DNA from: Pachysolen tannophilus NRRL Y-2460
Lineage: Eukaryota
Length of the DNA: 64,000 bases
Assembly (NCBI GenBank): GCA_001661245.1
Contig: KV454011.1
Location: 286,108-350,107, forward strand
Direction: 5' to 3'
The notes beneath the pieces are model-generated. The model did not search any database. It saw only the letters and a list, made by a program, of their open reading frames with translations, and was not told the DNA's origin. This document shows positions 1-64,000 of this stretch, piece by piece (position 1 is the first letter of the stretch; every line of letters begins with the position of its first letter). The translations under genes were made by a program, and so were the position numbers.

Positions 1-219
1 AANAAANAAAAAAAAAAAAAAAAAAAGCTATTTGGATTGAGTTTTAGTACTCATCATTTTATCATTTAACTAATATTATTATTATAACTTAATATAAACA
101 ATTTTTTTGTGTTTCAACTGCTTGCTTGATTTTGATTTGTTTTTTTTTTTTTATTTATTTTTTTGTTTTTTCTTTATTTTTACTTTTTCATTTGATTCGC
201 TTTTTGCAACAATCATCAG

Positions 220-2619
220 ATGGATTCAAATGCATTAGGTTTCGAAAACCAATACATAACGCCAGTTCAACAAAGTCATTATGCTGAAGAAAGTTCGAGT
301 ATTCTAACAACAACTGCAGATACAGTGGTTTCAGATTCTAATACATCTGAAGATCAAGAAGAAGAAAGCAAAGTGGTAGGACCTGATAATGATAAAAATA
401 TTGAAAATCAAACTGAAAGCTTAGATCCTCCTCCTCCTTCCTCTCCGGAAGAGGAAGAGGTAGAAGAAGAAGTAGAAGAAGAAGAAGAAGATGATGATGA
501 AGATGAAGAAGAAGAGGAAGAAGAAGAAGAAGTAAGTATAGGCACAACGATGTATCCTCAAGCTTACATATATGCTCCACCACCTCCACGGCCATTACAT
601 TCGGTTTCACCTCTTAATGAACCAGTATACCCAGTTACAATATATAATTTACCACAGGATACAAATTCTAGAAAATTAAGAGAATTGATTGTTCCGATAA
701 TTGGAGGTGAATATTATAGATCTTCAATTTCCAAGATCCAATTCTTGAAGCATGAGAAAAATAACAACATCAATAACGATATAAGTAGAACAGCAATTGT
801 TCACATTATCGGATATGAGGTGGCCGTTCGATGCTATAACGCTTTGAATGGATTTTCTCACATGGGTAGAATCTTAAGTTCAAGTATTTCACAACCACCA
901 CCACAAGCACATCCGCCAATATATTACCCGATGGCTCCTGGAAGTTCTCCGATAAATCGATCATTATCGGGTTCAAACTCAGCGATTGCCTCCTCATATG
1001 CGGGTTCACCTCCATATCAACCAATTCCAATCTTATCACCTCCGATACTGCTGCCACCTTCTCAGCTCCCGCAAACACTGCTGTCAATTCATGATCCTCA
1101 GAATTTGCATATGAGGCTGCAGCCAATGTTGCTGCAACCAACATCTGCAGGTGTTCCAGCAGGTGCATCAACAACTCCCGTTGCTCCTCTTCCTCCTGCT
1201 ACTGCCCCTGCTGCTGTTCCAGAGCCACCATTCACACCAGCGCCAGTAGACTACTATAATAGGGCAGCAACTGCAGCTGCATATTCAAATCCATATGCAT
1301 CTTTCCAATATTTTCCGACTTTTAATCGATTCCCGTTTCCAGTTCAAGGTCAGTATATGCCAACTCAATCACCTCCTAGAAAAATTTCTCCTGTCAATAG
1401 TGATTTGATGATGAGTTCTCAACAACAACAACAGCAACAGCAACAGCAACAACAACAACAATTTCCTTATCAAAGACAGCATAATCGGAGTATGTCATCG
1501 TCTGCATCAAATCTTAGTCTTCCACCTCCATTACCATTTATTGCTTCACCTCAACAAATTCCGCAATCAGCACTTTATACAGGAAGTCCCCCAATACCAC
1601 AACAAATTCCTCTGATACCACCACTGCCTCCTTCAGGCTATTATGGATATCCGCTGGGTCCAATTGCACCAAATATGTATCAGCCAATGTTACCAGCAAC
1701 TGTGAGTCCTTACAGAAAAAGCCATTCTAGATCAAGGTCGTTACCAGTAAACTCATACCAAAACTATCCATGGTTAAAGACACCCTTTCAACATCAACAG
1801 CAACATCAACAGCAGCTGCAGCTGCAATTGCATTTGCAGCAGCAAATGCAAAAGCAACAACAACAACAGCAGCAGCAACAGCAGCAACAACAACAACAAC
1901 CGCAGCATCATCAACATCAGCAGTCTCAACAACAACAACAACAACAGCACCGTTTCTTCTATTCCCAGCACAGGAAGAACAATAATGGGAATAACAGCAT
2001 TAACAATAAATATTCAACAATTTTAGACGTCAGTGAAGAAGAAGAAGATGATAACGATTATGATAATATTGACGTTCCTTTTGAGGAGAAACCACATACA
2101 GATTTTTCAGATCGTGAAAATATTGATCGCTGTAGACTCTTCATCGGTAATATACCTTTTTCTGCTCATTGGCAAGAATTAAGAGAGTTTTTGATATCCC
2201 AGATTGCTGGAATCATACGAGTTGAGATTCCAACCCAATTGAATGGTATTAGTAAAGGATTTGCTATAGTAACTTTCAACAACCCGGATGATGCATTAAA
2301 CTGCATAGAAATTTTTGATGGTAAAAATTTTCAAGGTAGGCCATTAACAGTTAGATATGATCGACATTTGAAATTTATCAGAAAATATAACGATTTGAAT
2401 GCATTGATAAAATCAAACGGTGGCAAACTTCCACCTAAAGTTTTGTCAAAAATCGATGAAAATACTGTTTACAGCAACAGCGATCAAGATAAGAAATTTA
2501 ATTTAAGTTCGACCAGCCTTAATTCCGCATCAAAGAAGGAAAATAAGTTAAGTGAGGAGGATGAAAAGCAAGAAGAAGAAGTTGCAAGGGAGCTAATGAG
2601 TAGTTTAAAAATAAAATAA
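220..2619 (+). CDS. RNA-binding protein with two RRM-like domains and long Pro/Ala/Tyr-rich and poly-Gln low-complexity regions
   Basis: 799-aa ORF. C-terminal RRM: RLFIGNIPF (RNP2), SKGFAIVTF (RNP1), FDGKNFQGRPLTVRYD. Degenerate N-terminal RRM: VTIYNLP...ALNGFSHMGRIL. Acidic N-terminus. Confidence 0.8.
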   Translation: MDSNALGFENQYITPVQQSHYAEESSSILTTTADTVVSDSNTSEDQEEESKVVGPDNDKNIENQTESLDPPPPSSPEEEEVEEEVEEEEEDDDEDEEEEEEEEEVSIGTTMYPQAYIYAPPPPRPLHSVSPLNEPVYPVTIYNLPQDTNSRKLRELIVPIIGGEYYRSSISKIQFLKHEKNNNINNDISRTAIVHIIGYEVAVRCYNALNGFSHMGRILSSSISQPPPQAHPPIYYPMAPGSSPINRSLSGSNSAIASSYAGSPPYQPIPILSPPILLPPSQLPQTLLSIHDPQNLHMRLQPMLLQPTSAGVPAGASTTPVAPLPPATAPAAVPEPPFTPAPVDYYNRAATAAAYSNPYASFQYFPTFNRFPFPVQGQYMPTQSPPRKISPVNSDLMMSSQQQQQQQQQQQQQQFPYQRQHNRSMSSSASNLSLPPPLPFIASPQQIPQSALYTGSPPIPQQIPLIPPLPPSGYYGYPLGPIAPNMYQPMLPATVSPYRKSHSRSRSLPVNSYQNYPWLKTPFQHQQQHQQQLQLQLHLQQQMQKQQQQQQQQQQQQQQQPQHHQHQQSQQQQQQQHRFFYSQHRKNNNGNNSINNKYSTILDVSEEEEDDNDYDNIDVPFEEKPHTDFSDRENIDRCRLFIGNIPFSAHWQELREFLISQIAGIIRVEIPTQLNGISKGFAIVTFNNPDDALNCIEIFDGKNFQGRPLTVRYDRHLKFIRKYNDLNALIKSNGGKLPPKVLSKIDENTVYSNSDQDKKFNLSSTSLNSASKKENKLSEEDEKQEEEVARELMSSLKIK

Positions 2620-3382
2620 GCATCGATAAGTGATTTTGTTTTTTGAATAAAAAAGAAAAAATTAGAAAATGAATTCGTTTTTCATTATGCATATTGGTCA
2701 TCGTTCGAAAATTGGTTTGTTATGACATTTCGCATATTTACCAGGTTTTCGTTTTTTTTGCTGACATTTAAAAATATCAGAGAATAGTCATTTTTCGTTA
2801 ATAAATAAGGAATTTTTAATAGTGGAGTTCATGTTTTATTGTTAGATCATTGGTTTCGTTCAGATTGTTTTTTTTTTTTTTTAATTTTTTTAATTTTTAA
2901 TTTTTAATCTTTAATTTTTAATTTTTTTATATTTTTATTTTTATTATTATTAATTAACATCTTTAAACGATTTTAATAATGTCTAATCTTGTTTGAATTT
3001 TTTTTTTTTTTTTTTTCTTTTACTTTTACTTTTATTACCTTACCGATAAAAAGATGTTACTTATAGGTCTTTCTTTTTTGTTATTCATATCCGTTTTAAT
3101 AATTTTTCATTTTCCAGTTTGTGGATGATATCATCTAATTGCGTCTTTTTATGTTAATCTTTTAGAAGTGTCATTCTCCATTTTAATATTATATACAATT
3201 ACCGTATCTTTTAATTCAATCTAATATATAGTTAACGAGGTTGAAATATTACTAATAGCTTGAACAAAAAAAAAAATAGTCATTTCACATAAACTACAAG
3301 GTTACTTAATCTATCGTTTTTTTTAAATAAAAATACAAAAACCAAAAAAAATCAAAACACCATTTTAGAAATATTTATTAGC

Positions 3383-5127
3383 TCAATTTTCATTAAGATT
3401 TTCCAGATTTTTATTCGAATTACCTTCATCGTCCTCATCATCTGTAATTTCATTTTCAGTTTCAGTTTTCTTGACATCTTCACCTTTATCATAAAGCGAC
3501 CCCTCTTCGTCATTATCAGGTTTCTTATCTTGCAGGTTTTCTTGCAGTTGTTGTTGCTGACTATTCTCAGCGTTATTGTCATTATTGTCATTATTGTTTT
3601 CCGGATTATTATTCTGCTGTTCATCCTGCAGGGGTTGTTGGTCGGCATTATTGTTTTCTTTAGATTGTTCATCCTGAACTGATTCTTGTTGTTGTTGCTG
3701 TTGTTGTTGTTGTTGTTCTTGCTGCTGTTGAGTTTCTCTATTTTTATCAGACTCTTTAGAATCAGATTCAGGAGGTGCGAAATCGGCAGCTTTGTCATTA
3801 TTAACTTTACTAGATGTGACACCTGGAGGTAATTGTAATTCTTGAGCGCTGAAAAATTTTCTAGCACAGCTATTTTCTGTGAAAAGGGAATCTTTAGTTG
3901 GATTACAATAACAAAAATGTTCTAATCTTGTATTTAAATCTCTAGGACAAGAAACATCATGCAGATTAGAGTATCCAAAATCGTCAAAGATTTTGACTTT
4001 ATTCTTTGGTAATAAAAGTGAAACACCCAAAGAGTGAACGTCTGAATCAGACCATCTTTCATAAAACCATCCACTTTCCTTATCTAAGTAATTGAATAAT
4101 TTCCTATATGCATCACTTCTGAAAAATTCTAAATCTGCGATTTCAAAAGCCGTTGACATTGTACATAAGTTGTAAGATTCACCGCCAGTATCACTAATAA
4201 AATCCAACAAGTTATCCCGAGCTAAAATAGAATTATCTGAATCCACCAAGTCTCTAGTATGATCCCATAAAGTTGAGACAGCAAAATCGCTATCACGCGG
4301 AGCAGTTATGAAACCATAAGTTAACTTATTTTGTTCCATATATTTCAAAAAATCATAATTAACATCACATTGAAACTCTACATCAGGATCAATTTTACAA
4401 TAATACTTGTAGTCAGCCAATACACGCATATCTTGGAAAAATCCTGATTGAAATCTTGCCTTAATTCGAACATATTCTGATTTCCCATTTGGATCTCTAT
4501 GGGTAATAGATTTTCTTCTCAGTTGAGCAGCTCTTTTACGATCAACCCATTCTGGAATTAAAAAATTTTCAGTTGGAATTTTATAAAAAATAGCTTTTCC
4601 TGATACCAATTTTGAAATCATTTGCATCAGCTCTGTTTTTAATGTCTTTTGATAAACAATAACCCAATCATATTTATATTTATGATTGAAACGGGCCTCC
4701 ACAGATTGTATTGAACTCAATAGTCTAGGTAAATCCGTATTTCTCACAATAGAGTAAAAAGTCGCGTTTGCACGTTCATAACCACTTTCAAAAATAGTAT
4801 TCAAAGTTTGATCACCAAGTTGATCTTGAGTCTTTGTAGCAACAGGTGGATTATGAATATCATTACCCCTATTCTCGTCTTTATTATTATTTTGCATCAA
4901 AGGTTTTTCAAAAGAATTATAATATGGATTATCCTTGAAAACCTCTTTCACTATCTCCCAAGTAGACTTCACTGGTGTATCGTGTGTACCATCATCTTTA
5001 TTCTGAATAATTATATTACTCGGAGTATCATCAATATTTTTTTTTTTAAAGAAAATGCTAATATAGATAATAATATAGCCAGCACCAAAATTAATTTCTT
5101 CTTTTTAAAAACAAATATCCTCGACAT
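3383..5127 (-). CDS. KRE2/MNT1/KTR-family (GT15) Golgi mannosyltransferase-like protein; apparent 1-nt frameshift at an A11 run near the 5' end
   Basis: GT15 motifs RANATFYSIVRN, RFNHKYKYDWV, RFQSGFF, YNLC...FEI, YERW. ATG at 5127 gives MSRIFVFKKKK plus a hydrophobic type II anchor, one frame off from the catalytic ORF across the T11 run at 5037-5047. Confidence 0.8.
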
Positions 5128-5505: not shown

Positions 5506-7741
5506 TCATTCGTCATCTTCATTTATCATCTTATTAATCAACTCCATATTATCATGAAACACAGCAGCTCCATTAGCTTTACCAAAGTCCACTTTTATCA
5601 AATCCTCGGTTTCATCGTAGTTACCCAATATCCAATCATCCAAAGTTTTTTTCATATTATTCGTTCCGTAAAATTCAATTTGTTTCTTCTTGTACAAAAA
5701 TTCATAAGGTAAATTATATTCCAATTCGATCATGTTCAGTAAAGAATCTGTCTGGTCTAAAGAGTTTAACAGCTTGCTCCTTTGCAAAGCACCGTATTTA
5801 GATGGGCATACCTCAGTACTAATATCTGATAATAGATTGTGAAAGGCTGGTTTCTTAATAGTAGGGTTCCCCAGCTTACCATGATCATTAAGTTTGTTAC
5901 TTTCATCTTTCGGAAGTAAATACCGTGGAAGTAGTGTTAAAGGAACGGGAGAAGTTGGTAATTCGTACTTGCAATGAATTAAACCTTCCATCAACGAGAT
6001 TACTTTCAAATTATTCTTGTTATCTATAGCAAATAAGCATGACTTTGTTAATTTTTCTTTTAAATCTTGTATATTTTTTAAAAATTCTGATCTACTATCA
6101 TCTAGAACAGAAGAAGGTGAAGAAGCATTCAATTGGGCAACTTCATAACCAGTAGTAATTTTTTTCAATCCACAATTAGATAAAACCCAGCTTCCATCTC
6201 TACTGTTACCAATATCACTGTCCAATCCTTCAAAATCTGTTTTAAACAAATGTAAGCTGCCTGATAATCTACTAATTACACCAACAGCTTTATTTTTTTC
6301 ACACCAAAAAACTTGATCAACTATTCCTGGCGTATTCCCACGTTTAAATTTGTCAACAAGTACAATTTGCTTGTTGAATTTAGTATAATTCCAAATAAAT
6401 ATATCGTCCCCCCTCAAAGTAGTTGTAGACAATAACAAGTCGTAAGGAGATAATGAAACGTGAGAACAACCACCTGGAGGTGAAAACACAAATAGAGGTT
6501 TTCCAATTTCCAAAGAAACCAAAATCAAAAATTGTCTTGATGATGTACCATTTAATGGGTTTAAAATTCTTGTTATTGTCTCTTTCAAATTTGTTGATGA
6601 TGTTGCATATAATTTGCCATCATTTTGCTGCAGCAGATGAATTTGTTGTTGTTGTGAAGTATTTAGATACTGTTTCAATCTTGATTGAGAAACTTCAGTG
6701 AATTTGAAAACACCATCAATTGCAGTACTGGACAAGTTTTTCAATAATCTATTTAATAAAGGTCCTGGTTTAGGTAAATTCAACGGCGTGATTTTCAAAT
6801 GTTCCGGAATCCCATTATGGATACGATTATCTGCATTATTTTCTTCTTTATGACCTAGATAATCATTTGAGATAATTTGCTGATAATTCCCATCAATTGT
6901 GCTTGGACTATATACTAACCAATTTTCTTGAACATCATATACTGGATTGTTGTTTATAACTTTACAATTCAATTCTAAATGTGTTAATGGTGAATAATCC
7001 TTCAAGTTGAAAATGGATAATGAACCTTCTGATGTGGAAATGACAAAATAATCTTCCAATACTTTACAGGTGTAAGGCCCAGAACCAATAGTTGAAGGTA
7101 ATAAAGACAAATTACGTTTGGTCAGGGGTTTATTTTGTGTAAAATCTATTATCTGGAAATAATCTTCGTTTTTTTTCACATACCCAACCAAGGAAGTATA
7201 ATTACTCCTTTTTCTATTTGCCTTCAATAGACAAAGAGTTGAAACTATCCCATCAATGCCATTCACAGAAGCAACTAAATATAATGTACCGCCGGAATCA
7301 GTTAAACGGGTTGTATCATCAAGAGGAGAAGGAAACCAATCCCAAATCTCCACGTTATTTCCATAACTTATAATGACTTCTCCATTAGGACCAAACTCGA
7401 TCACGGTATTAGGTGTCACTGAAGATAAAGCTGAAGCGCTAGAGTTTGGCGGAGACATCCCATAGCTATTACCGCCATTGTTCAGTGATTGACCCGTTGC
7501 AGTTGTTGCGGTTGTTGTTGTCGTCGTCATCTTAGAAGTAGCAGCAAAAGCCGAATTCGACGCCGTAGTCTTGACTTTAGACCATATATTATTTGAAACC
7601 CTAGAGGCCTTTATGGGGGCTATTGGACTATTTATAAAAAATTATAATGGTTAGTAATCCAAATAACCACAATTCACTGATTAAAATTCATAAATATACT
7701 CACGTCTTGATAATTCTGGTACGGTCATATCCAGAGGGCAT
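5506..7741 (-). CDS. WD40/beta-propeller protein resembling BCAS3/Atg18-like (PROPPIN-related) proteins; one predicted 5' intron
   Basis: 674-aa ORF stays open upstream to about 7627. Predicted exon1 7741-7704, intron 7703-7628 (GTGAGT...TACTAAC...TAG), exon2 7627-5506. Segment SPYDLLLSTTTLRGDDIFIW...FKRGNTPGIVDQVFW...GSLHLF resembles the BCAS3 propeller. Confidence 0.6.
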
Positions 7742-8125: not shown

Positions 8126-10648
8126 CTAACGCTTATTTTTGCGTAACTTCTTTTCTCTTTCGTAGTCATTCTTCTCAGCACCTTCGATGGTAGAGATGGA
8201 ATTAACAATACGTGCCATTCTAGCGTGATAATCTTTGTATTCTTGTTTCTTTTCTTTAATTTGTTGTCTTGCTTCGAATTTGTTATCTTTCCGGATTTCT
8301 TTCAATGCCAATTTTCTTTCCTTCTTGACGCTAGCCTTCAATTTACCAATCTCTTGTCTTGTCAAATCTGGATCATATGATTTTTTATCAGGATTGAAGT
8401 TTTCTTCGAATTTAGGTGCAAATGTAGCAATGGCCACTGGCTTGTGGTCTTGGAGTTGTAATGGTTTATGGAGGTTATTGGCATGTAGTTTAACCAATTT
8501 TTCCAATAATTCAGGAATGGTAGTATATTGGGCTTGGTACTTGACTAAATGTCTCAATACGGCAATAAATGGTGTTGTGATTTCTATGAATGCAGATTGT
8601 TCTTTCCATATCGATATAAAATTTCCCAATATATCTAGCGCCTTGACTAACAAAGCTGATTTTATCTCCAAATTCTTCAAATTTTCATGATCTAAATTGA
8701 TATCTGATATTTTTAAATTATATGTACCAGTTATTTTGTCATTTTTATTTAAATTTAAACCATTTTTAGCGTAATGTTTAGTAGAAAATACTGTTGATAA
8801 TTTTTCCAGATTTAACTTGTTCACCTCAGGCACAAGAGTTAAAAATGCTTCTTCCAAAAAATAAGCAATTTCAGGAACATATCTTTTAGAAATTCTTTGA
8901 TATTTCAACATTAAATCCGAAATAAATAAACCACTAATTAGATTTTTCAAATTTTTATTCGGCTTCAAAGATTCCAATGATTGTCCCATTAATATTAACG
9001 TTGGCGTAACAACTAAATGATACAAATCTGAAGTAGAATAAAGCATACCGACAATAGAGTAAAAAATTAAATCAGAAACTTCTGGATAATTTTGATTTTC
9101 ATTTATTCTCTCTTGAATTTCTACTATTTTCATTCTAAAAGTTTCACATAAAGATTCATTGTATTTTTCAGCCATCATTTTTAATTGATGTATTAATTTT
9201 TCTTCAACATCGATGAATTCTTGTTTATTTTCATGATCCCCATTTGATAAATGCAAAATATGATTTAATAAAATTGAAGAAAAAACTGCCAATTTTTCTT
9301 TATTTCCAGCAGCAAGTCTTGGCTGATAAGTATTTAAGATTTTAGAAACCACTTCAGGAGTCTCACAAAACTCATATTTTGATAACAAGTCCAAGAATTC
9401 TTTATGTGTTTCAGGACATTTAACAACATTTAAAGAAGTTGTACTTTTAATAATTTTATTACCAATTTTGATAACATTTGGTGTTGGTTCACTTATAGAA
9501 TTCTCCTTTCCTGTTTCAGTTTCAACTTCATCTTCATCTTCATCTTCGCTTTCCTTGATAGTGAAACCATCTTCTTCATTCTCAGATGCATTTCCCCAGA
9601 AATCATCGTCTAAATCATCAGCACCAACTGCATCTTTATCTTTCTGCTCTTCAATATCTAATCCTTCCATTCTACGTAATCTATCCTGTTCTAATTTCTT
9701 TAATTTTTCCAGTCTTTCTTTCTCTAACTCTTCATCAGTTTTTGATCTATCACTCGGTACAGCTCTTCTATCTAATGCCAATTCTCTTAATTTGGTATCG
9801 TACAGTATATCTTGTTCAGATTTTTTATCAAAAAACTGTTTTTTGTTTTGAACAGCAGCTTCTTGTAAAGAACTCATAACATCTTCAAAATTATCATCCA
9901 AATCCAATATTTCATTTTCAGTTTGTTGTTGTTGTAATTGCCTTTGATGCTTATAAAATTTTGATTTGGCAATAACTTCTTTCATAACTTCAGCTTTTGT
10001 CTTCTTTCTTTGCACCGGTACTTCATCTTCCCCTTCATCTTCGTCTTCAACCTGATAAGATCTTTTTCTATTACTTGAAATCAGTTCAGGTAATCCTAAA
10101 TCTCCTTGATCAAAGTCGTCCTGCAAAGATAACGATTTCCCATAATGGGTTAATACATTGTTATCATCATCACCACCATCATAATAATTATTATTATCAT
10201 CATCATCATCTTCTAAATTAAACAAACTCCGCTTAGAACTTTGTAATTGTCTTTCCCTAGTGAAACGCTCTAACATTTTATCTTCAGGATTCAAATTTGG
10301 ATTATTTTCACCAAATCTACGATCGACAACTCCTCCAACTTTATTCTTCAATTTCTTATTAGCCTCATACGCATTCTTCCTCTGCTCTTCCCCAATCTGT
10401 TTAGAGATCCCAGGCCTCCCAACAACAACTTTAGATTTCCTTGCTTCATTAATATCTCTTTTATTCCTATTCATTTTTACTTCAAACGGATTAAACTCTT
10501 CTCTTATTGCATTTATAACCAGCTTCCTATCATCTCTTCTAGTCTCTGAAGGTGCATTCTTTTTCCCCTTTCTTTTAACATTCGTCTGTCCAGTAAGTCC
10601 AGCTGCCTTCAAGGACTCCTTGAGCTTCTTCAACTGAGATCCAGCCAT
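8126..10648 (-). CDS. NOP14: Nucleolar 40S biogenesis protein Nop14
   Basis: N-terminus MAGSQLKKLKESLKAAGLTGQTN; motifs DRRFGE, LERFTRERQ, KTKAEVMKEVIAKSK, PKFEENFNPDKKSYD. Confidence 0.97.
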   Translation of the reverse strand: MAGSQLKKLKESLKAAGLTGQTNVKRKGKKNAPSETRRDDRKLVINAIREEFNPFEVKMNRNKRDINEARKSKVVVGRPGISKQIGEEQRKNAYEANKKLKNKVGGVVDRRFGENNPNLNPEDKMLERFTRERQLQSSKRSLFNLEDDDDDNNNYYDGGDDDNNVLTHYGKSLSLQDDFDQGDLGLPELISSNRKRSYQVEDEDEGEDEVPVQRKKTKAEVMKEVIAKSKFYKHQRQLQQQQTENEILDLDDNFEDVMSSLQEAAVQNKKQFFDKKSEQDILYDTKLRELALDRRAVPSDRSKTDEELEKERLEKLKKLEQDRLRRMEGLDIEEQKDKDAVGADDLDDDFWGNASENEEDGFTIKESEDEDEDEVETETGKENSISEPTPNVIKIGNKIIKSTTSLNVVKCPETHKEFLDLLSKYEFCETPEVVSKILNTYQPRLAAGNKEKLAVFSSILLNHILHLSNGDHENKQEFIDVEEKLIHQLKMMAEKYNESLCETFRMKIVEIQERINENQNYPEVSDLIFYSIVGMLYSTSDLYHLVVTPTLILMGQSLESLKPNKNLKNLISGLFISDLMLKYQRISKRYVPEIAYFLEEAFLTLVPEVNKLNLEKLSTVFSTKHYAKNGLNLNKNDKITGTYNLKISDINLDHENLKNLEIKSALLVKALDILGNFISIWKEQSAFIEITTPFIAVLRHLVKYQAQYTTIPELLEKLVKLHANNLHKPLQLQDHKPVAIATFAPKFEENFNPDKKSYDPDLTRQEIGKLKASVKKERKLALKEIRKDNKFEARQQIKEKKQEYKDYHARMARIVNSISTIEGAEKNDYEREKKLRKNKR

Positions 10649-10924: not shown

Positions 10925-12268
10925 ATGTCTGGAAGGAGGATTGTAATTACTGGTGTTGGTCTTGTAACTCCTCTTGGAGTTGGTGTGAAGAATTCGTGGA
11001 CGAATTTGGTGAAGGGAAAATCGGGTTTAGTATCCACCAAGATATTAGATGAGTATGATAGGTATTACAAAGATATACCGAGTCAAGTTGTCGGTAAAGT
11101 TCCCGAATTGAAGGATGGTAATGTGAACGGTTTGGTTTTCCATGGTGGTGAAAGTAGTGGGTATTGGGATCCGACTAGTTTTCTACAGAATGGTGAAGTT
11201 AGGAAACTCCCCAGATTTGCACAATATGCTTTATGTGCTACTAAAGAAGCTTTATCCGATGCAAATTGGTTTCCTACACAAGAAGATGATTTAAATGATA
11301 CTGGTGTTTGTATCGGATCAGGAATTGGAAGTATTGAAGATTCTTTTAACAATTCGGTAAATTTCCATGAAAAGGGTTATAGGAAAATTCAACCTTTATT
11401 TGTACCTAAACTATTGGCTAATATGGCTTCAGGAAATGTATCTATAACTTATGGATTTAAAGGTCCAAATCATTCTGTATCTACAGCTTGTGCCACAGGT
11501 GTACATGCAATAGGAGATGCTGCTAGGTTTATAAAAGATGGATATTGTAATGTGATGGTTGCAGGAGCAACAGAAGCTACAATTCATCCTTTAGCCTTGG
11601 CTGGATTTGCTCGTGCAAAATCTGTAGTGACAAATTTTAATGATGACCCAACAGCTGCTTCAAGACCTTTTGATAAGGATAGAAACGGATTTGTATTAAG
11701 TGAAGGTTGTGGAATATTGATTTTAGAAAATTTAGATCATGCTTTACAAAGAGGTGTCAGTAATATTTATGGTGAAGTTGTTGGATATGGATTATCTGGA
11801 GATGGATATCACATAACATCACCTTCTCCAAAAGGCTTGGGGGCTCTGAGGGCAATGGAATTTGCATTAAAACAAGCAAATGTATTACCGAATGCTATTG
11901 ATTATGTAAATGCTCATGCCACATCAACATTATTAGGAGATAGAGCTGAAAATCAAGCAATTCAAACAATATTTGGCAATAACAATAAGGAATTAGCAGT
12001 TTCAAGCTCAAAAGGATCAATAGGTCATCTTTTAGGTGCTGCTGGTTCTGTAGAACTGATATTTGCCATATTAGCTATGCATAATAACGTTTTACCTCCA
12101 ACTTTGAATTGTGATTCTCCTGGAGGCGCTGAAGGTGATGATAAAGATAATTTTATTTTCAATTATGTTCAAAATAAAGCTCAAGATAAAGAGATCAATT
12201 ACTCTATGAGTAATAGTTTTGGATTCGGTGGTACTAATGCCTCCATTTGTTTTAAAAAAATTAAATAA
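10925..12268 (+). CDS. CEM1: Mitochondrial beta-ketoacyl-ACP synthase (FabF/OXSM type)
   Basis: Motifs RRIVITGVGLVTPLG, STACATG (catalytic Cys), VNAHATST, GHLLGAAG, SNSFGFGGTN. Homology begins at ATG 10925; an in-frame ATG at 10817 adds an acidic repeat. Confidence 0.95.
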   Translation: MSGRRIVITGVGLVTPLGVGVKNSWTNLVKGKSGLVSTKILDEYDRYYKDIPSQVVGKVPELKDGNVNGLVFHGGESSGYWDPTSFLQNGEVRKLPRFAQYALCATKEALSDANWFPTQEDDLNDTGVCIGSGIGSIEDSFNNSVNFHEKGYRKIQPLFVPKLLANMASGNVSITYGFKGPNHSVSTACATGVHAIGDAARFIKDGYCNVMVAGATEATIHPLALAGFARAKSVVTNFNDDPTAASRPFDKDRNGFVLSEGCGILILENLDHALQRGVSNIYGEVVGYGLSGDGYHITSPSPKGLGALRAMEFALKQANVLPNAIDYVNAHATSTLLGDRAENQAIQTIFGNNNKELAVSSSKGSIGHLLGAAGSVELIFAILAMHNNVLPPTLNCDSPGGAEGDDKDNFIFNYVQNKAQDKEINYSMSNSFGFGGTNASICFKKIK

Positions 12269-20729: not shown

Positions 20730-20774
20730 AAATGAAAAAAANAAAAAAAAAAAAAAAAAAAAAAAGATAAAAAA

Positions 20775-22868
20775 TCAGCAACCTACTAACTTATTACCTG
20801 GAATGGTGTAACCAGCGCCAGTCCATGTTGTCTTATTGTAATCCTCATAAGCATCTGGATGAGCTTCAATGTAGTCGTAGGTTGGATAATCATCAGGATC
20901 ACATGTGAGTGAAATAGAATCATTTGGTTGATAGATTCTAACATAGTCAACACTAAGAGTGACTGGGAAAGCAATAGAAGGCCAATCGATATATGCCCAA
21001 TTATTGGAAATACCTAAATTCATGATAATTGACATTGGTTCTTTTGAAATTCTTCTAAAATCAATATTACCATTTGGTGACAATGCATAAGATCTAACGG
21101 TAAAAGTTGGATCATCACCAACAAACCATCTAACATAACCATCGTCATCATCATTTAAATATTCATAAGCATATTTCTGATAATCATGAACACCAGATGA
21201 ACCCAACTCATACCATGTAGTATTCAAAGTAGTTGTTGCAGAAACAGCTTGTTGATTAGGTCCACCAGTATATGTATTCATTGTAGTGATTGAAAAATTA
21301 TAAATTTCAGTAAAATTATAATCAGGATAATACCAAATATCCATTGGGGCGATTTGTAAAGATTGTGAAGCAACACCTACACCAACGGTAGTATCCATTT
21401 CACCTTCAATAATATCAATTTCTGGAGCTCCTCTACCAGTACCTGGATTTGGATGTTCATCACCTTCACAAGTACATGAATTTAATCTTTGACCTGGTAA
21501 ATAAGAAATACCATCTGGAGAAGATTGATTTGGTGTTATACCAACATCACATGCTTCATAAGAATATGGCCATACACCATAAGTAGTGGCCATATAACCT
21601 GGTCTACCCAAGTTTCCCATTGACCAAAGACCTGGCCATAATCCAGTAACGTTACCATAATTAGGAAATCTAGCTGAAATTTCCAATACTCCTTGAGTAA
21701 AACATAATCTATTCCAAGAATGTAACATACCAGATCTATAGAATAAATCATGATTTTTAAAAGCATCCATTCTCATTTTCACTGTACCATTTCCTGTTGT
21801 TACTGCATCGGGATCATACCATTCTAAATCTTCAGTAGCAGCATAATTTAAATCTGCAGCATACCAAAATTGATCATCACCATCATAAAAAGTTCTTCCT
21901 TCAGCATTGAATTCATCACTGAAAACTAAAGTCCATTCAGAACCATCCAAAGCTGTTCTTGAATAAACATCATCTGGAGTATCAGGATCAACTAATGATG
22001 TTCTTATCAGTGAAAGTTGAGGATATGTATAATCAGTCAAAACGGTATATTCTGATTCAACCACAGTACTTGTATCTGCTATACCTGTATATGTTAATAA
22101 TGGAAGTATTACAAACACCAGGATAGCTCCTGCAATCATAAATAAAAATCCAAAAACACCACCAGCAGATCTTTTATCCATTGATTTTAAATCATATAAA
22201 AATCTATTTTTATCATATTGAGCATCCAGTATTGGATCTGGGTTATGCAAATAATCATCTGGTTCTTTATCTTCAATATGTAAAGGGAAAGAAGAAGCTG
22301 GATAACCACCAAAGGGAGAAAAATCTGCATCTATTAATAATGGATTTGTTGACCTATCACTTAATGAAGAATCATCTCTATTTAAATGTTGTAATAAACT
22401 TGATCTTGAACCCAGAGAAGCATATGACAAGACCCTTGATGAATTTATAGCAGAAGGATACCTATCAAATTCAGGAGGTGTCAATCCATTTGTATGACCT
22501 GATGCATTCAAGAAATTAGCAGCGGTAAAATCATTTGGAGTTGTTGGATTAAAGATCTGAGATTCTGTGGCACTATTTCTTATACCATCACCCCCTCTTC
22601 CTCCAAGTGCAGCAGCGCCAACACCTGTCCCAGCAGCAGCGGCGGCAGCACCAGTAGCAGCACCAGCAGCACCAGCACCACCACCGGCGGCAGCATCCAG
22701 ATTCGTCAATGAAGTGGTTGAATCATAACCTTCATCAAAAGTCATGCTGTTTGCATGTTGTGCTCTCTGATAATCATCTTCAGTAGTGAAAGGATTCTCC
22801 AACGAATCATCAGAATTATCGTTTGCATTCCCAAGGGTTGGTGTTCCTGTTAAATTCCTTGTACTCAT
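20775..22868 (-). CDS. KRE6: Beta-1,6-glucan synthesis protein, Kre6/Skn1 family (GH16-like, type II membrane)
   Basis: Motifs DFSPFGGYPASSFPL, EPDDYLHNPDP, one TM helix, LVFSDEFNAEGRTFY, GRGAPEIDIIE. KRE6 and SKN1 cannot be distinguished. Confidence 0.92.
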   Translation of the reverse strand: MSTRNLTGTPTLGNANDNSDDSLENPFTTEDDYQRAQHANSMTFDEGYDSTTSLTNLDAAAGGGAGAAGAATGAAAAAAGTGVGAAALGGRGGDGIRNSATESQIFNPTTPNDFTAANFLNASGHTNGLTPPEFDRYPSAINSSRVLSYASLGSRSSLLQHLNRDDSSLSDRSTNPLLIDADFSPFGGYPASSFPLHIEDKEPDDYLHNPDPILDAQYDKNRFLYDLKSMDKRSAGGVFGFLFMIAGAILVFVILPLLTYTGIADTSTVVESEYTVLTDYTYPQLSLIRTSLVDPDTPDDVYSRTALDGSEWTLVFSDEFNAEGRTFYDGDDQFWYAADLNYAATEDLEWYDPDAVTTGNGTVKMRMDAFKNHDLFYRSGMLHSWNRLCFTQGVLEISARFPNYGNVTGLWPGLWSMGNLGRPGYMATTYGVWPYSYEACDVGITPNQSSPDGISYLPGQRLNSCTCEGDEHPNPGTGRGAPEIDIIEGEMDTTVGVGVASQSLQIAPMDIWYYPDYNFTEIYNFSITTMNTYTGGPNQQAVSATTTLNTTWYELGSSGVHDYQKYAYEYLNDDDDGYVRWFVGDDPTFTVRSYALSPNGNIDFRRISKEPMSIIMNLGISNNWAYIDWPSIAFPVTLSVDYVRIYQPNDSISLTCDPDDYPTYDYIEAHPDAYEDYNKTTWTGAGYTIPGNKLVGC

Positions 22869-23736: not shown

Positions 23737-25242
23737 TTAGTGGGATGGGTTTTGTGTGTGGAAAGTTTTTAACCTGTGATAAATTTCCTCTTTTGTGAAG
23801 GGGAAATATTTTTGTATTAGTTTTTCCGTCACCGTGGACACTGCAGAAATTGTAGACGTTGTTGGCAGCACTGGAAGCACTGGCAGCGGTGCTACCGTTG
23901 ACTGCGATAACTTTTTTGAATGGGTTAGGTGCAGTGTCCGCTCATGCTCCGCAGATTCAACGGATTGTGGTGGTGCAAGCTGCGTTGAGTTCTGCGTTGG
24001 CTGCGCCAGCCCTAAATTAGCTTTATTTAAATCCTTTGAATTCAAATTTAAAGAATTTCCAGAATTTTTTCCGCAGCAGGAATAATATAAAATTGTATAT
24101 TCTCTGTAAAAATTCTCCTTCTCCTTGTCGGATAAGTCTATGTGTGAGAATTCTGATTTAAATTTTCTCCTGAATTCTATATAGTATAATTTTTTTTTCA
24201 ACTTGGGTATCTTGGAGTTAAGATATTCAATATACTGTAGAATGGGGTTATTGGCTAAGAATTCGTTGTAATCCTCCTCTTGGTGCTGTTCCAACGGCAG
24301 CAGCTGGGACTGCAGCAGCAGCAGAGTGAGCAGTAATTTTTCTTTGCACCATTCATCAAATATAGCTTTCCTCTGTTTGTTATTATCAACTACTAAAAAC
24401 CGTGGTTGCTCGATAAGTTTATCAATTTCTAAATCAAACGAACTATATGGATTTATACCAAGATCATCTAGTAATGACTTGAACTCATCTCTTGATGTAG
24501 AGTCTATATCGGTTTCAAAATCAGAAAAATTAATTCCCTCGTTGTCTGAAGAAACACTATCACTATCTATATCCAGAGTTTCCTCCAAACTATCTTCTTC
24601 TTCTTTTTCTTCTTTTTCTTCTTCTTCTTCTGAATCCTCTTCGCTTGATGATCCGTACCCTAATACCAACGGTTCAGTTGTAAAAAATTTTTCCTCTTTC
24701 AAATTTTTTTTCGAATCCGATCCTGACTCTATTCCAGATTCATCACACTTTGATGATGATGATGATGATGACACCAGTACCGCTACCGGCTTTGTTTCCG
24801 TTTCCTTGACCAAATATTTTTGCGATAAATAATTTTCATCTTTAACTTGTAATCGAAGTCCTCTTGCTTTTGCAATTAATAACAACATATCCAGTTTATC
24901 TAAATCTTGAATCTTGGCTCGTAACTCTTCATCTTGTTCAATTTCATCATAAATAACCCACTTAGAAACCAGTGTAACCTTATTATGATAAAATTTTCCA
25001 CCTCTAGAAGTTATAACCATTACCCAGTTGTTAACTAACCCAATCTCATATAATGGATCTCCATAATCATTTATATTAACTTGATTAAATTTACCATCTC
25101 TTTTACGAAATTTCTCACTTCGTACTACTGGTCTTTCATTATTCATCTTCGATTTTAATTGAACATTTTCAATATTATCATAATACAGGTCTAGAATACC
25201 AGTCCCGTGTTCTAACCAACTCGATTTAGTTTCTTCCGTCAT
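23737..25242 (-). CDS. URN1: WW/FF-domain splicing-associated protein (Urn1/TCERG1-like)
   Basis: WW-like WVMVITSRGGKFYHNKVTLVSKW; LGYGSSSEE; FF domain FKSLLDDLGINPYSSF...RKAIFDEWC. Neighbouring genes match the URN1 region of S. cerevisiae. Confidence 0.72.
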   Translation of the reverse strand: MTEETKSSWLEHGTGILDLYYDNIENVQLKSKMNNERPVVRSEKFRKRDGKFNQVNINDYGDPLYEIGLVNNWVMVITSRGGKFYHNKVTLVSKWVIYDEIEQDEELRAKIQDLDKLDMLLLIAKARGLRLQVKDENYLSQKYLVKETETKPVAVLVSSSSSSSKCDESGIESGSDSKKNLKEEKFFTTEPLVLGYGSSSEEDSEEEEEKEEKEEEDSLEETLDIDSDSVSSDNEGINFSDFETDIDSTSRDEFKSLLDDLGINPYSSFDLEIDKLIEQPRFLVVDNNKQRKAIFDEWCKEKLLLTLLLLQSQLLPLEQHQEEDYNEFLANNPILQYIEYLNSKIPKLKKKLYYIEFRRKFKSEFSHIDLSDKEKENFYREYTILYYSCCGKNSGNSLNLNSKDLNKANLGLAQPTQNSTQLAPPQSVESAEHERTLHLTHSKKLSQSTVAPLPVLPVLPTTSTISAVSTVTEKLIQKYFPFTKEEIYHRLKTFHTQNPSH

Positions 25243-26660: not shown

Positions 26661-27639
26661 ATGTCAAGACCAGTGGAATTTCTATCTAGTATGTAAGAAT
26701 TTTGATATAATTTATTTTGAAAGTTTTTTGTTTTTTTTTTTTTTTTTTTTTTAGAAAAAGAGAATGTGTTAAACTAACTAACTAACTTTAATTTTTTACT
26801 TTTTTTTTTTTTTAGGAATCGCAATTCCAGCAGGAATAGCTATTACAGCTGCTCAATATAGTATGTACGATGTTAAAGGTGGTTCAAGAGCAGTTATTTT
26901 TGATAGATTTGAAGGTGTGAAGCAACTGGTTATTGGTGAGGGTACACATTTCTTGGTTCCATGGCTTCAAAAAGCTATTGTTTTTGATGTTAGAACTAGA
27001 CCAAGAAATATTACTACTGTTACTGGATCAAAAGATTTACAACAAGTTTCACTTACTCTTAGAGTTTTGCATAGACCAGATATAGGAAATTTGCCAAATA
27101 TTTATCAACATTTGGGTCTTGATTATGATGAAAGAGTTCTACCATCTATTGGTAATGAAGTTTTGAAAAGTATTGTTGCTCAATTTGATGCTGCAGAATT
27201 AATTACTCAACGTGAAATTGTTTCACAAAGAATTCGTCAAGAATTATCGACAAGAGCAAAAGAGTTTAATATTAAATTAGAAGATGTATCAATTACTCAT
27301 TTGACATTTGGTAGAGAATTTACAAAAGCTGTTGAAAGAAAACAAATTGCACAACAAGATGCTGAAAGACTGAAATTTCTTGTTGAAAAAGCTGAACAAA
27401 CAAGACAGGCTTCGGTTATTAGAGCAGAAGGTGAAGCAGAAGCAGCAGATCATATTTCAAAAGCTTTGGCCAAAAATGGTGATGGGTTATTGTTAATTAG
27501 AAGAATTGAAGCATCAAAAGAGATTGCAGCAACCTTAGCAAACTCTCCAAATGTTACATACTTGCCAGGTAAGACTACTGGTGGTAGTGGTGGTGATGGT
27601 GGTAATAACAATTCTTTATTGCTTAATATTGGACGTTAA
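26661..27639 (+). CDS. PHB1: Prohibitin 1, one intron
   Basis: Exon1 26661-26688, intron 26689-26815 (GTATGT...ACTAAC x3...TAG), exon2 26816-27639, 283 aa. Motifs [37 protein letters not shown]. Confidence 0.96.
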
Positions 27640-39938: not shown

Positions 39939-42900
39939 ATGTCTGCTACTGAGGATCCTATCACAGGGCAGCAAAAGAGGAAAAAGACATTTAGTGGGTG
40001 CTGGACCTGCCGCTCGAGGAAAGTGAAATGTGATACTCGTAAGCCGAGCTGTCTTCGGTGCGAGAAATCGGGTTTTACTTGCGGCGGTTATGAAATAAAA
40101 TTACGGTGGTCGAACCCTGTTAAATTTGACAAGTATGGGAATCAACTTTCCACTCCTCATAGTGGAGATGAAAGTTTAGCTAATAATGATCAACATTTCC
40201 AAAGAAGAACTATTGATTTTGTTCGGTTCCCGCTGAATAGTTTGTATGAAACATATGAAGATATAGATCGCCATTTGGCTCATTTACATAATTCCAATTT
40301 AGAAAAAGATGAAATTAAGAAATTAGGACCATTTTCCGTTTTTCTGACCCATGAAGCTGATTTGTTAAGGAGAAATAAAATGCTAAAGAAAAGAAAGTTA
40401 AAGAGCGATAATAGTTTTAGCGATGAAACTAGGAGAGCAATTTCACAACCACTGCCTTCACCACCAACCACAGTAGCTGGGGATACTATTAGTAGGACTC
40501 AAAACTCAACACCTTCTCTGGAGAAGACGATAAAATCAACATTGCCATCTGCTCAAGTATCGATCAGTAATAGGAATTTAAATCCTTCAGATGCTGATTT
40601 GAATTTTTTCGGTGCTTTACCAAATTCTGCTCAAGGAAATGAATGGTTAAGTAATGAACTTATCAATGATGCTTTATTGACAGTTTCAGCGTTAAATGGT
40701 GACACTCATTTTTTGGATTTTTTCAATATAAATGATATGTCCAATGGAAATAATAATAATAACAACCGTAGTTTTTTTTCGTCAAATAACAGCGGTGGTG
40801 GTATGATTAATCAGAACAATGATTCACATCAATTGTATTATCCACAGCGTCAGCAACAACAAGATCAGCATCAGCAGAATCAACATCAACAACAGATATC
40901 TCAAAATTCAAATTCAAACCAAGTTCAAAATCAAAACCAGCAACAATTGGCAAACCAAGATGAAATGTTCAATTTATTGTTTCATAGAAAGGAACAGAAT
41001 TATCATTCAGATAAAAATTTCAAAGTTATTAGGGATAACGAAATCCAACCAACTACTGCAATATCTTTATCAACACCTCCAGATTCGGGAGGAACAGCTG
41101 TATCAGCGGTACTGGGAAATAAAACAGCTCAGTCTAAGAATAATAAAAATACAATGAATAGCATTATGTTACATGCACCTGATGGAACATCGAAAATGCC
41201 ATCTACTATTATGGAAATTATTGATACTACTCCGTTACCTGCATCACTTGCAATAGATAAATTTTGTATTCCAGCCACCGCATTACAAGTCAATCCTATG
41301 ACAAGATATTTATTGAATTATTATATTGAAGAAGTTGCAGATATGATGACTGTGATTCCACTTCCTAAAAACCCTTGGAAGTTTATTTACTTTCCAAGAG
41401 CATTGATGGCAGTTGGAGAATTGGGTTCAATTGGAAAGACATCTCACGCTAAAAACTGTTTATTAAATGCATTATTAGCTGTCAGTGCTTTTAATTTACA
41501 AAGTAAATTCACTAGAAACAGTGATGAAATGAAAGTATATCTTAACTTGGGTATTCAGTTGAGACAACAGGCAACTATTTTTTTGAAGCATTGTCTCCTA
41601 GAAGATGTTTTAAACCAGAAGTATAAAGATGTACTAGTTGCTGTCTTATCAATGGTCACTATAGATATTGTTTGGGGAACAATGTCAGATTGTAAATTGC
41701 ATTTAGATATTTGCGAGAAATTGATTGCGAAGAAGATGAAAATTAAAAAGAAATTATCTTCAAAAGCTAAAATTTTACATCGTATTTTTAGTAATTTGAA
41801 ATTGATTCAGGATTCTACAAGTTTGGATAAAATTGGTAAGGATGAAATTTTTTTGAACGATTCTAATTACAAATATTTTATAATGGATCATGGTTTAAGT
41901 AATGATAATGTTGGTAGTAATTCCGACAACAAAAATCAGCAAATGTTTTCTAATCATAACACTAGCAATAATCTTAACGATAGCAATTACAATTATATCA
42001 CTTCAGGTGTTAATAATAAAAATAATAGTAACAATGGAAGTCCTTCAACATCTCATAAAAGAGGTGTATTTCATGAGAAAATGAATGATCAAGGAAGGAT
42101 TAGAATAGAATATATCGTTAACAATGAAAATGAAGGTGATTTGAATGGGAATAACATAAATAAAAAGGTAGAAGACTCTAGTGGAATAGATGGAGATCAT
42201 CTGCCCAAGATTTCTTCTGATATTCCTGATTTTATAGATATTACCAGATCAAGTTTTATGCCAGATAAGTTAAAGGATAATATGATCTCAAGTGATGCAA
42301 TTTATGGATTACCAAACTCATTAATTTTATTATTTTCAGAAATCGTTCACTTGGTAAGATTTAAAAGATATCATGATGACGAAAATTTGAAAATCCCCGA
42401 GTTTTTTTATAAATTGGCGAAAGAATTAGAGTTTAAATTGTCTAATTGGAAACTAGAGTGGAAACTATATGATACAAATAATGAAACTTCCAATACTACT
42501 GTTTCTGAAGATCCTCAGAACTTAGAAAATAAAAAGTTTTTATCCAAGAGACACGAAGGAATTTATCACCATGTGCTCTCTTTTTACCATGGACTTATTA
42601 TATATTTTCATCGTATGGTGAATAATGTAAATCCAATGTATTTACAGGAGCACGTCGAGAAGGTCTTGATACACTTGAACCTTATTCAGGCAATAGTTGA
42701 AAATAAACCAGCAAACGATAAAAATTTATTGATAATTCCGTTGTTTTGGCAAGGTTTTATAGCTGGAAGTGAACTGATGACTGTCTTCTTACAAAATGGG
42801 TTTAAAAATTGGGGTACACAAATTAGTAAAACGGGTATTGGTAGTTACTGGGTTGCGAGACAAATTATGTTGGAAGTTTGGAGAAGGAAAAATTTTAATG

Positions 42901-51521: not shown

Positions 51522-53357
51522 TTAAAAATCAATAACTTCTTCTAATGATTCTTCATCAGATAAGAGTGATTCTAGCATTCCACTTGAAGCAGCAATCAAA
51601 CCTAAGAATGGTCTTGAAGGATCTAATACTTTTGATAAATATTCTGGATGGTATTGTGTAGCAACATAGTATAAATGATTTTTCAATTCAAAAATTTCCA
51701 TACGTTGTTGATTTTCATCTTTTCCAATAAAAATCAATCCATGTTCTTCAATTTTAGAAACTAATTTAGGATTGACTTCATACCTATGTCTATGTCTTTC
51801 CAAGACTTGATCTTTATTACCATAAAGTTTTCTTAATACTGACCATTCTGTTCCTTCTTGGAAAACAGTTGGTCTTAAACCTAATCTCATTGTACCTCCA
51901 AGTTTTTCTTTATCAATTTCAGGCATATATACAACAGATGCAAGATCATCACTTAAATCTGGAATGAATTCAGTTGAGTTTGAACTTTGAATACCAATAA
52001 CATTTCTAACAAATTCAATAACAGCGATTTGTAAACCAAGACATACTCCAAGGTATGGAATATTATTTTCTCTTGCCCATTTAGCAGCAGCCATCATTCC
52101 TTCTGTACCACGTTGACCAAATCCACCTGGAACCAATATTCCATCAGCGCAGCAAACAGAGTGCCAAGCTTTATGGAAGTTTACTTTATCCTTTGTCTGT
52201 TGTTCAACTTCTAAATCTGTTGATTCAACCCAAATGATTTCCAATTTTTTTTTACATCTCATAGCAGCATGTTCTAAAGATTTAACCACTGAAAGGTATG
52301 AATCCTTTAAATGTGTATATTTACCAACTAATGCAATACTAACTTTTTCAAAAGATTGATCAACATTTGTTGTTAATTGAGTCCACCTTTTCAATAAATC
52401 TGCACCTTTTAATAACATATCTTGAGAAACATTTAATGCATCTAATTGTAATCTTTGAGTTAAAAATTGCAATTCTTTTTGTTTTCTCAAAAGTAATGGT
52501 ACATGATATGTTGAATTAACATCATGAACCGCCAATACTTGTTCTTTACCAACATGACAAAACATTGCAATTTTATCAATTGTTGGTTGATCTAATTCTG
52601 AAGAACATCTACAAGCAATCATATCTGGCATCAACCCTAATGATCTAAGATCTTTAACTGCTGCTTGAGTAGGTTTTGTCTTTTGTTCCCCATGGATAAC
52701 AGGAACTAAAGAAACATGAAGTAAGGCAAAATTTTCATGACCAACTCTAAATTGAAATTGTCTTAATGCTTCAACAAAAGGTGCACTTTCAATATCACCA
52801 ACTGTTCCTCCCAATTCAATAATACAAACTTCTGGCTCTAACCCAGTATTATCAACAGGAATCCTACTGACACGTTCAATCCATTCTTGAATTGCATTAG
52901 TGATATGAGGAACAACTTGAACAGTCTTACCTAAATAATCACCTTTTCTTTCTCTTGAAATAACCTGAGAATAAATCTTACCAGTGGTAATATTATGATC
53001 TTTAGTCAACGTGATATTCAAATATCTTTCATAATTTCCTAAATCCAAATCAACCTCTCCACCATCGTTCAATACAAAACATTCACCATGCTCTAATGGA
53101 GACATTGTACCAGCATCTATATTCATATAAGGATCAATTTTAATCGAGGTAACCCGAAGACCTAAAGTCTTCAAAAGTAACCCCGTACTTGATGCCAATA
53201 CACCTTTACCAATACCAGAAATAACACCTAAAAACAACAAAAAAAACACAAAAAAACTTTAGTTAGTCGATGACATGGTAATTTAGATGAGAAACTCGAA
53301 AAAAAAATTTTTTGATTATATCCTCTACATACCACCGGAGACAACAACGTATTTCAT
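51522..53357 (-). CDS. URA7: CTP synthase, one intron
   Basis: Exon1 53357-53333 (MKYVVVSG), intron 53332-53228 (GTATGT...GACTAAC...TAG), exon2 53227-51522 (GVISGIGKG). Motifs GVCLGLQ, RHRHRYE, QYHPE. Confidence 0.97.
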
Positions 53358-53958
53358 TTTCTATAGACTCTTTTAATTTTAAAGTTTTTTCTTTCTCCAA
53401 ACTGATTACTATACTTTAAAGAGAGGTAACTTAAGAAGATACCCGTAGAGTAATACAAGAACTCAAACGGGAAGAGAAGAAGAAGAAGAAGAAGAAGAGA
53501 GAGAAAGAAGAATTAAGAAAATAAAGGTATAAAAGATTTTTCTAAAGTACTATATAACTTTACTACTGTTACATCGCAGTTGAAAAAAAAAAAAAAAAAA
53601 AAAAATTTTTTTTTTAAAAAAAAAAAAAAACAGAAATTTCCAAAACGCGTAATTAGAAAGAAATTACTCAATTCGGAACTCCAAAATTTTTTATTTCTTT
53701 ATACGGATTTTTGTTACTTAATTGGGGTAGACTTCCCAATTAGGGAATTGTAAAGTTTTTTTTTGTGGGTGTTTTCTTGTGTTTCCTAAAATGGAAATTT
53801 GTAACCAAATTTGGAGTTTCCTGTTTGGGAATGGTTTAGGTAATGAGTTTTTCAAGTGCATCTATCTGATGGATTTTGATTTTAAACAAGGTTTCCAAAT
53901 TATTCATTTGTTTAATGAATTTATAATCTAATTGGCGGTCTGTTGTTGAGACGGAAAG

Positions 53959-63244: not shown

Positions 63245-63484
63245 AAAAATAGTTATATATCTATATATCTATATATCTATATACATATATATATCTTAGT
63301 TAGTACGTTATCGCAATTATGTATTTCTTATCGTTATTTATTTATGTAGTTGTAAAAAGGTCAAAAAAAAAAAAAAGATTTGAAATGAGATGAGATTTAA
63401 TTTAAAAAGAAAAAACATAGCCATTTGTAAGATATATAATTCAATTTAAAAATAATTTTTTTTTTAATAAGAGGAAGGCGGAAG

Positions 63485-64000
63485 ATGATACCATCGGACA
63501 ATTTGGATAAGATATCGTTCAAGACAAAGACCATTAGTTGGAATGGAAATAATTCGGTGAATAATATATTACTTCAAAATGAAAACGGACCATGTTTCTT
63601 GATATCATTAGTAAATTCATTAATTTTATCTAGAGAATTAAAATCTTATGATTCTAATGGATTCCCAGCTTTAAATTCAAGTAATGAAGATGATGAATTG
63701 GTTCCATTAAAATCATTACTCACAGCTAAAAATGTGAAACTTGTTGATTTATTGAATGAACTTTCATTATTATTACTACAATTAAATAATGATGATGGCG
63801 GTAATGAAATCTTGGATATATCTTCCATATTAAATCGATTGCAATATCTTCATACTGGAATTAATATAAATCCATCAGTGAATGATCCAATTGTTAATCT
63901 TGCCAATGATGAAGTATTGAAAATATGCAACCATCTTGGGTTAAAAGTTATACATGGATGGTTAATCGATCAAGATAATAATGCTAATGAAGATGATATC
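63485..64000 (+). CDS. MINDY-family deubiquitinase (Miy1/Miy2-like), truncated by the window end
   Basis: Manual translation MIPSDNLDKISFKTKTISWNG...ILLQNENGPCFLISLVNSLIL...LHTGININPS...VIHGWLID, open to the window end. QNENGPC and HGW are MINDY signatures. Confidence 0.88.
   Translation, partial: MIPSDNLDKISFKTKTISWNGNNSVNNILLQNENGPCFLISLVNSLILSRELKSYDSNGFPALNSSNEDDELVPLKSLLTAKNVKLVDLLNELSLLLLQLNNDDGGNEILDISSILNRLQYLHTGININPSVNDPIVNLANDEVLKICNHLGLKVIHGWLIDQDNNANEDDI

Follow-up and report, generated by a model that had tools for sequence, protein, structure and literature searches.

The window analysed here, a stretch of 64,000 nucleotides taken as a whole (positions 1 to 64,000), is almost certainly nuclear DNA from Pachysolen tannophilus NRRL Y-2460, an organism that translates the codon CUG (CTG in the DNA) as alanine (NCBI code 26). 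The grounds seen in the window are the identity of the organism, the alanine-like and non-leucine character of the alignment columns in which CTG falls, and a public annotation that uses table 26. The reassignment itself is already known, as it was published in 2016 for the same species. An earlier sequence-only reading of the window, made without database searches, had proposed that CUG is read as alanine, had named P. tannophilus as a plausible source and had described the system as rare rather than undescribed. These proposals were borne out: the column statistics choose alanine, table-26 entries are public, the source was confirmed and lies inside the known CUG-Ala clade, and the reassignment in P. 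tannophilus is described in passages of published work (PMC4937558, PMC5951914 and PMC11182611).

A script that listed every CTG found 105 in-frame occurrences among the 15,191 codons of 29 genes, which is approximately 3.6 per gene. When all 32 open reading frames (ORFs) of at least 150 amino acids were counted, CTG formed 106 of 15,746 codons, or 6.7 per 1000, with TTA and TTG occurring at 48 and 31 per 1000 respectively. The five CTG codons that had been quoted by the sequence-only reading as examples of alanine columns were all found to be in frame and in the quoted context when their coordinates were checked. The runs that appear as leucine under the standard code were also located, namely TLLLLQSQLL in the URN1-like protein (CTG at codons 307-310 and 314-315), QLQLQ in the RRM protein (codons 533 and 535) and PPPPLY in the PIN3-like protein (codon 86).

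Homologs were collected for four genes (NOP14, KRE6, a KTR-type mannosyltransferase and a Zn(2)Cys6 factor) with CTG translated as X so that the outcome would not be prejudged. For NOP14, 120 homologs were listed and 102 were kept after removal of the self entry and of sequences more than 90% alike. The other alignments kept 109 non-redundant homologs of 120 listed for KRE6, 24 of 26 for the KTR protein and 150 for the Zn-cluster factor. Columns with no more than 30% gaps were considered to be alignable, and the four genes together provide 2267 such columns. The four genes contain 24 CTG codons, and 12 of these occur in segments that could not be aligned and are mostly of low complexity, so that they were left out of the tally. 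CTG had been said to be rare in the conserved parts of genes, and the alignments agree with this, as 12 of 24 CTG codons are in alignable columns as compared with 2255 of 3024 other codons (Fisher p = 0.009).

The sequence-only reading had suggested that residues at CTG columns be tallied against orthologs. This tally, run on the four genes with a Codetta-style log-odds score over the 2267 columns, assigns 60 of the 61 sense codons to their standard amino acid, and the sole exception is CTG. Over its 12 columns, alanine scores +7.8 bits and is the best choice, followed by glutamate (-13.7), serine (-16.1) and leucine (-25.3), so that both leucine and serine are rejected. Codons that are similarly rare in the alignments were still assigned to their standard amino acids (CTA, n = 8; CTC, n = 6; GCG, n = 6), and CTT (n = 18) was also assigned to leucine.

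The composition of the columns leads in the same direction. The 12 CTG columns contain on average 26.4% alanine, 6.7% leucine and 5.1% serine. In contrast, the 216 columns of the other five leucine codons contain on average 50.9% leucine and 2.5% alanine, and columns of serine codons contain 41.3% serine. The 115 columns of the standard alanine codons (GCN) have a mean of 42.0% alanine and 3.9% leucine. When 12 columns of other leucine codons were drawn at random, none of 100,000 draws was as leucine-poor or as alanine-rich as the CTG set. Among random sets of 12 GCN columns, 4.5% were as alanine-poor as the CTG set, and the CTG columns are therefore somewhat less conserved than typical alanine columns.

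Individual sites are listed in Table 1. The strongest alanine column found is at residue 287 of KRE6, which was absent from the examples given by the sequence-only reading, and two further CTG codons of this gene, at residues 214 and 250, are in columns where alanine forms the majority and the plurality respectively. Three of the five quoted examples were found to hold, namely residue 170 of PHB1, residue 414 of CEM1 and residue 946 of the Zn(2)Cys6 factor. When CTG was read as each of the three amino acids in turn, the Pfam Fungal_trans_2 score of this factor was 265.6 bits with alanine, 264.2 bits with serine and 263.4 bits with leucine.

The public annotation was found to use alanine at these codons. 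In an exact-sequence look-up, the ORFs of NOP14 and aconitase matched NCBI/UniRef/nr entries exactly when translated with table 26, whereas their table-1 translations are absent, in agreement with the earlier statement that the window needs table 26. At the CTG sites of the deposited self-proteins, alanine is present in 17 of 17 cases (five of five in NOP14, five of five in KRE6 and seven of seven in KTR). The deposited KTR protein is the hypothetical protein PACTADRAFT_31067 [Pachysolen tannophilus NRRL Y-2460], which is 99% identical. The ORF translations of CEM1, KRE6 and KTR have no exact database entry under table 1 or table 26, which says nothing either way; for KRE6 and KTR the deposited models differ in length from the ORFs. 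NCBI taxonomy places P. tannophilus in the order Alaninales, family Pachysolenaceae. Apart from the self entries, the closest homologs belong to Babjeviella, Candida arabinofermentans, Ogataea and Kuraishia, yeasts of other orders, with identities of 52-53% for NOP14 and 72% for KRE6, and such distant next-best homologs fit what would be an isolated lineage beside the Pichiales.

We also compared Pfam bit scores under translation tables 1, 12 and 26, added up by hand for 31 family rows. Table 26 scores higher than table 1 by 15.5 bits and higher than table 12 by 10.6 bits, and table 12 exceeds table 1 by 4.9 bits. Alanine gives a higher score than leucine in 15 rows, a lower score in six and an equal score in ten. 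The comparison is in the right direction for alanine and is weak. Most CTG codons are located outside domains or in variable columns.

Several observations weigh against alanine. It is the majority residue in only five of the 12 alignable CTG columns, and the remaining majorities are glutamate (two columns) and lysine, arginine, proline, leucine and phenylalanine (one column each). The leucine-majority column is that of KRE6 residue 152 and the phenylalanine column is that of KTR residue 90, and at both sites leucine would be a more conservative choice than alanine. Under table 26 these two sites become Leu-to-Ala and Phe-to-Ala changes relative to the homologs. The other two of the five quoted examples did not turn out to be alanine columns, as CEM1 residue 344 is variable and is leucine in the human enzyme, while NOP14 residue 313 is mostly glutamate or aspartate, with alanine only the third commonest residue and leucine rare. 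Where a lone distant homolog from the PDB was available, the residues facing CTG are glycine at aconitase residue 375, proline, threonine and cysteine at the TMA64 sites, and alanine, histidine and valine at the SMP30 sites; these homologs are too remote or too scarce for the residues to carry information. Leucine also scores slightly better than alanine in the Pfam families RNA_polI_A14 (2.0 bits), MFS_1 (1.0), SUI1 (0.8), Band_7 (0.3), ketoacyl-synt (0.2) and PK_Tyr_Ser-Thr (0.1). Finally, CTG codons have more hydrophilic flanks than ordinary alanine codons (mean Kyte-Doolittle hydropathy -0.84 as compared with -0.19, p = 4e-7) and by sequence context CTG does not resemble a typical GCN codon. 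The flanks of CTG also differ from those of leucine codons (p = 0.003), although the difference from alanine codons is stronger. As this test separates CTG from both, the amino acid cannot be read from it.

One alternative is that decoding is ambiguous, with CUG read mostly as alanine and with a substantial share of leucine. Ambiguous Ser/Leu decoding of CUG has been reported for Ascoidea asiatica. The two CTG codons at leucine or phenylalanine columns (KRE6 152 and KTR 90) are in favour of such a scheme, and the DNA alone is compatible with mixed decoding. However, if new codons are placed by chance, two such columns among 12 are within expectation. In addition, passages of Mühlhausen et al. 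(2016, Genome Res, PMC4937558) report liquid chromatography-tandem mass spectrometry (LC-MS/MS) of P. tannophilus in which alanine was found at 97.2% of the 907 CUG positions that had full support from fragments, where the residual non-alanine was comparable to differences at the unambiguous AUG codon. We therefore consider a substantial share of leucine to be very improbable.

The standard code, in which CUG is leucine, is even less probable. The preference for alanine would then have to arise from a rare CTG being located at variable positions that are rich in small residues. KRE6 residue 152, KTR residue 90 with leucine as the conservative substitute, CEM1 residue 344 and the six Pfam rows that slightly prefer leucine are all in its favour. 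Against this, the score of leucine over the CTG columns is far below that of alanine while CTA, CTC and CTT are returned as leucine by the same method, and no set resampled from the columns of the other leucine codons was as poor in leucine or as rich in alanine as the CTG columns. Furthermore, the table-1 translations of NOP14 and aconitase are missing from public databases where the table-26 translations are present, and the published LC-MS/MS results reported in passages of PMC4937558 contradict the standard code. Reading CUG as serine (table 12), as in Candida (Serinales) or in the Ascoidea and Saccharomycopsis clades, is the least credible alternative: the advantage of table 12 over table 1 and the marginally best scores of serine for Band_7, Pkinase, ANAPC4 and PIG-S speak for it, but serine falls well below alanine in both the log-odds and the summed Pfam scores, it is scarce at CTG columns as compared with the columns of serine codons, and the organism belongs to the Alaninales and not to the Serinales.

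With CUG read as alanine, CTG was observed to differ from the other alanine codons in its surroundings. A glutamine codon (CAA or CAG) is a neighbour of 21 of the 105 CTG codons as compared with 46 of 647 GCN codons (p = 1e-4), the usual level being approximately 7% for alanine or leucine codons. Eight adjacent CTG-CTG pairs were found where 0.7 would be expected. In the four aligned genes, 12 of 24 CTG codons are alignable as compared with 115 of 156 GCN codons (p = 0.03). In this one 64-kb window, CTG may thus form a distinct population of alanine codons found preferentially in tandem runs and in segments that are hydrophilic, rich in glutamine and hard to align, a suggestion that we regard as tentative and rather doubtful. 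It would fit a history in which many CUG-Ala codons arose after the reassignment, through CAG-to-CTG changes or slippage of CWG (CAG or CTG) repeats in disordered regions, and not by replacement of GCN codons at conserved alanine sites. A limited literature search turned up no prior report of CTG-Ala codons arising in disordered tracts.

Table 1. CTG sites and related features of the window, with the residues observed at the corresponding positions of homologs.
Feature	Position	Strand	Observation
Whole window	1..64000		P. tannophilus NRRL Y-2460 nuclear DNA; 29 analysed genes, 105 in-frame CTG, no tRNA gene
CTG cluster	1816-1824	+	CTG clustered with glutamine codons and with each other
CTG cluster	3533-3547	-	CTG clustered with glutamine codons and with each other
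KTR mannosyltransferase residue 90	4628..4630	-	Phe in 23/24 homologs (96%)
NOP14 residue 313 (EKER-X-EKLKK)	9710..9712	-	Hydrophilic, variable: E 44, D 19, A 13, K 11, T 4, L 3 of 102
CEM1 residue 344 (GLGA-X-RAM)	11846..11848	+	Variable, not Ala: V, Y, Q, L, L in 5 chains among the matches listed
CEM1 residue 414 (GSVE-X-IF)	12056..12058	+	Mostly Ala: A, F, A, A, A in 5 ketoacyl synthase chains among the matches listed
KRE6 residue 287 (YPQLS-X-IRTSL)	22008..22010	-	Ala in 104/109 homologs
KRE6 residue 250 (transmembrane stretch)	22119..22121	-	A 49, V 23, L 5 of 109
KRE6 residue 214	22227..22229	-	A 55, E 30 of 109
KRE6 residue 152	22413..22415	-	Leu majority, about 60%: L 64, S 20, I 8 of 109
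URN1 low-complexity stretch	24298..24324	-	CTGCTGCTGCTG CAG TCC CAG CTGCTG; six CTG in nine codons; AAAAQSQAA under table 26
CTG cluster (URN1)	24298-24324	-	CTG clustered with glutamine codons and with each other; reads CTGCTGCTGCTGCAGTCCCAGCTGCTG
PHB1 residue 170	27370..27372	+	Invariant Ala: 5/5 prohibitin chains among the matches listed
Zn(2)Cys6 factor residue 946 (FIAGSE-X)	42774..42776	+	Ala in 99/150 homologs, Leu 4, gaps 10

The window has a GC (guanine plus cytosine) content of approximately 30% and, judged from ORFs and Pfam matches, its gene complement is an ordinary budding-yeast set. It contains genes for an RRM protein, the KTR-type mannosyltransferase, NOP14, CEM1, ATG9, aconitase, KRE6/SKN1, an FF-domain protein (URN1-like), a proteasome subunit, prohibitin, a PIN3-like SH3 protein and NCA2. 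Also present are a mitochondrial carrier, the Zn(2)Cys6 factor, an MFS transporter, an SCY1-like kinase, GEP5, APC4, CTP synthase, eIF2D/TMA64, MRPL1, an SMP-30 protein, GPI17, RPA14 and HOM2. The names were taken from Pfam families or from the sequence-only reading, and orthology to the Saccharomyces cerevisiae genes is presumed by name only. The Zn-cluster factor, as an example, was called ARG81 in that reading and its Pfam domains are Zn_clus and Fungal_trans_2. In the 64-kb window ARAGORN found no transfer RNA (tRNA) gene and no Rfam family was matched at its gathering score.

Two ORFs, one of 674 amino acids (5506-7530, minus strand) and one of 414 amino acids (35547-36791, plus strand), were found to be without a Pfam family at E <= 1e-5, and both are rich in low-complexity stretches of asparagine, glutamine and serine. 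A masked run of 469 N residues (20261-20729) is located between the stop of KRE6 (20775, minus strand) and the next gene, and two apparent ORFs at 20193-20811 are spurious artefacts of this run. Single N residues are also found at positions 3, 7 and 20742. The deposited model of KRE6 (20775-22868, minus strand) has 656 amino acids as compared with 697 for the ORF from the first ATG, while that of KTR (3383-4897, minus strand) has 546 as compared with 504, and the start codons or exon structures of these two genes are therefore uncertain.

Short 5' exons followed by introns were apparently missed by the first-ATG ORFs of three genes (25400-26394 and 26600-27639 on the plus strand, and 53120-53400 on the minus strand). 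In the proteasome subunit, the apparent exon 1 runs from 25400, with GTAAGT at 25460 and 25723 and TACTAAC at 25554 and 25797. In prohibitin, the apparent short 5' exon is followed by GTATGT at 26689, and exon 2 is in frame upstream of the ATG of the ORF. In CTP synthase, the sequence MKYVVVSGG is followed by GTATGT at 53332. The missed exons fit with Pfam matches that begin at profile positions 46 and 42 and with a prohibitin alignment that begins at residue 20 of the homolog.

Very few sense codons have been reassigned in the nuclear genomes of eukaryotes. The change of CUG to alanine is one such case, and it bears on the ways in which the genetic code can change, namely capture of a codon driven by tRNA loss. 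It also has a practical consequence, as table 1 would make 105 residues wrong in the 29 analysed genes. Following published work, the decoder would be a tRNA that carries the anticodon CAG but is an alanine tRNA in other respects, with a G3:U70 pair and A73 and without the long variable arm of leucine and serine tRNAs. Because the alanine features are present and the long variable arm is missing, this tRNA would be charged by alanyl-tRNA synthetase and CUG would be read as alanine. Passages of Mühlhausen et al. (PMC4937558) describe the tRNA(CAG) of P. tannophilus as clustering with alanine tRNAs, with G3:U70, A73 and a G1-C4 acceptor sequence, and as being without the extended variable loop of leucine and serine tRNAs.

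When the window is compared with what is known of code 26 in P. tannophilus, the organism and strain are the same, alanine is the best choice for CTG in both and no difference in kind was observed. The same paper gives 16,824 CUG positions across 5288 predicted proteins, and the CTG density of the window and its number of CTG codons per gene agree with these published counts. A difference is seen in where the codons are located: for motor and cytoskeletal proteins, a passage of PMC4937558 describes CUG as being 'mainly at conserved alanine positions', whereas alanine-majority columns are a minority of the alignable CTG columns in our four genes and half of the CTG codons there could not be aligned.

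The CUG-Ala clade consists of Pachysolen, Nakazawaea and Peterozyma, as given in a passage of Krassowski et al. (2018, PMC5951914), and 'CUG translated into alanine' is part of the diagnosis of the order Alaninales in the text of Groenewald et al. (2023, PMC11182611). The reassignment in the window is the same as the one that is diagnostic there, and since the type species is the source of the window, no new member is added to the order. CUG-Ala is already part of both the public annotation and the NCBI code tables, and the order was named for it; the sole addition made here is that the code can be recovered by a reader from raw sequence. The CUG-Ser codes (table 12; Candida/Serinales and Ascoidea/Saccharomycopsis) are similar in that CUG was likewise captured from leucine by a non-leucine tRNA with anticodon CAG. 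They differ in the target amino acid, which is serine in those yeasts, whereas in this window serine fits 24 bits worse than alanine.

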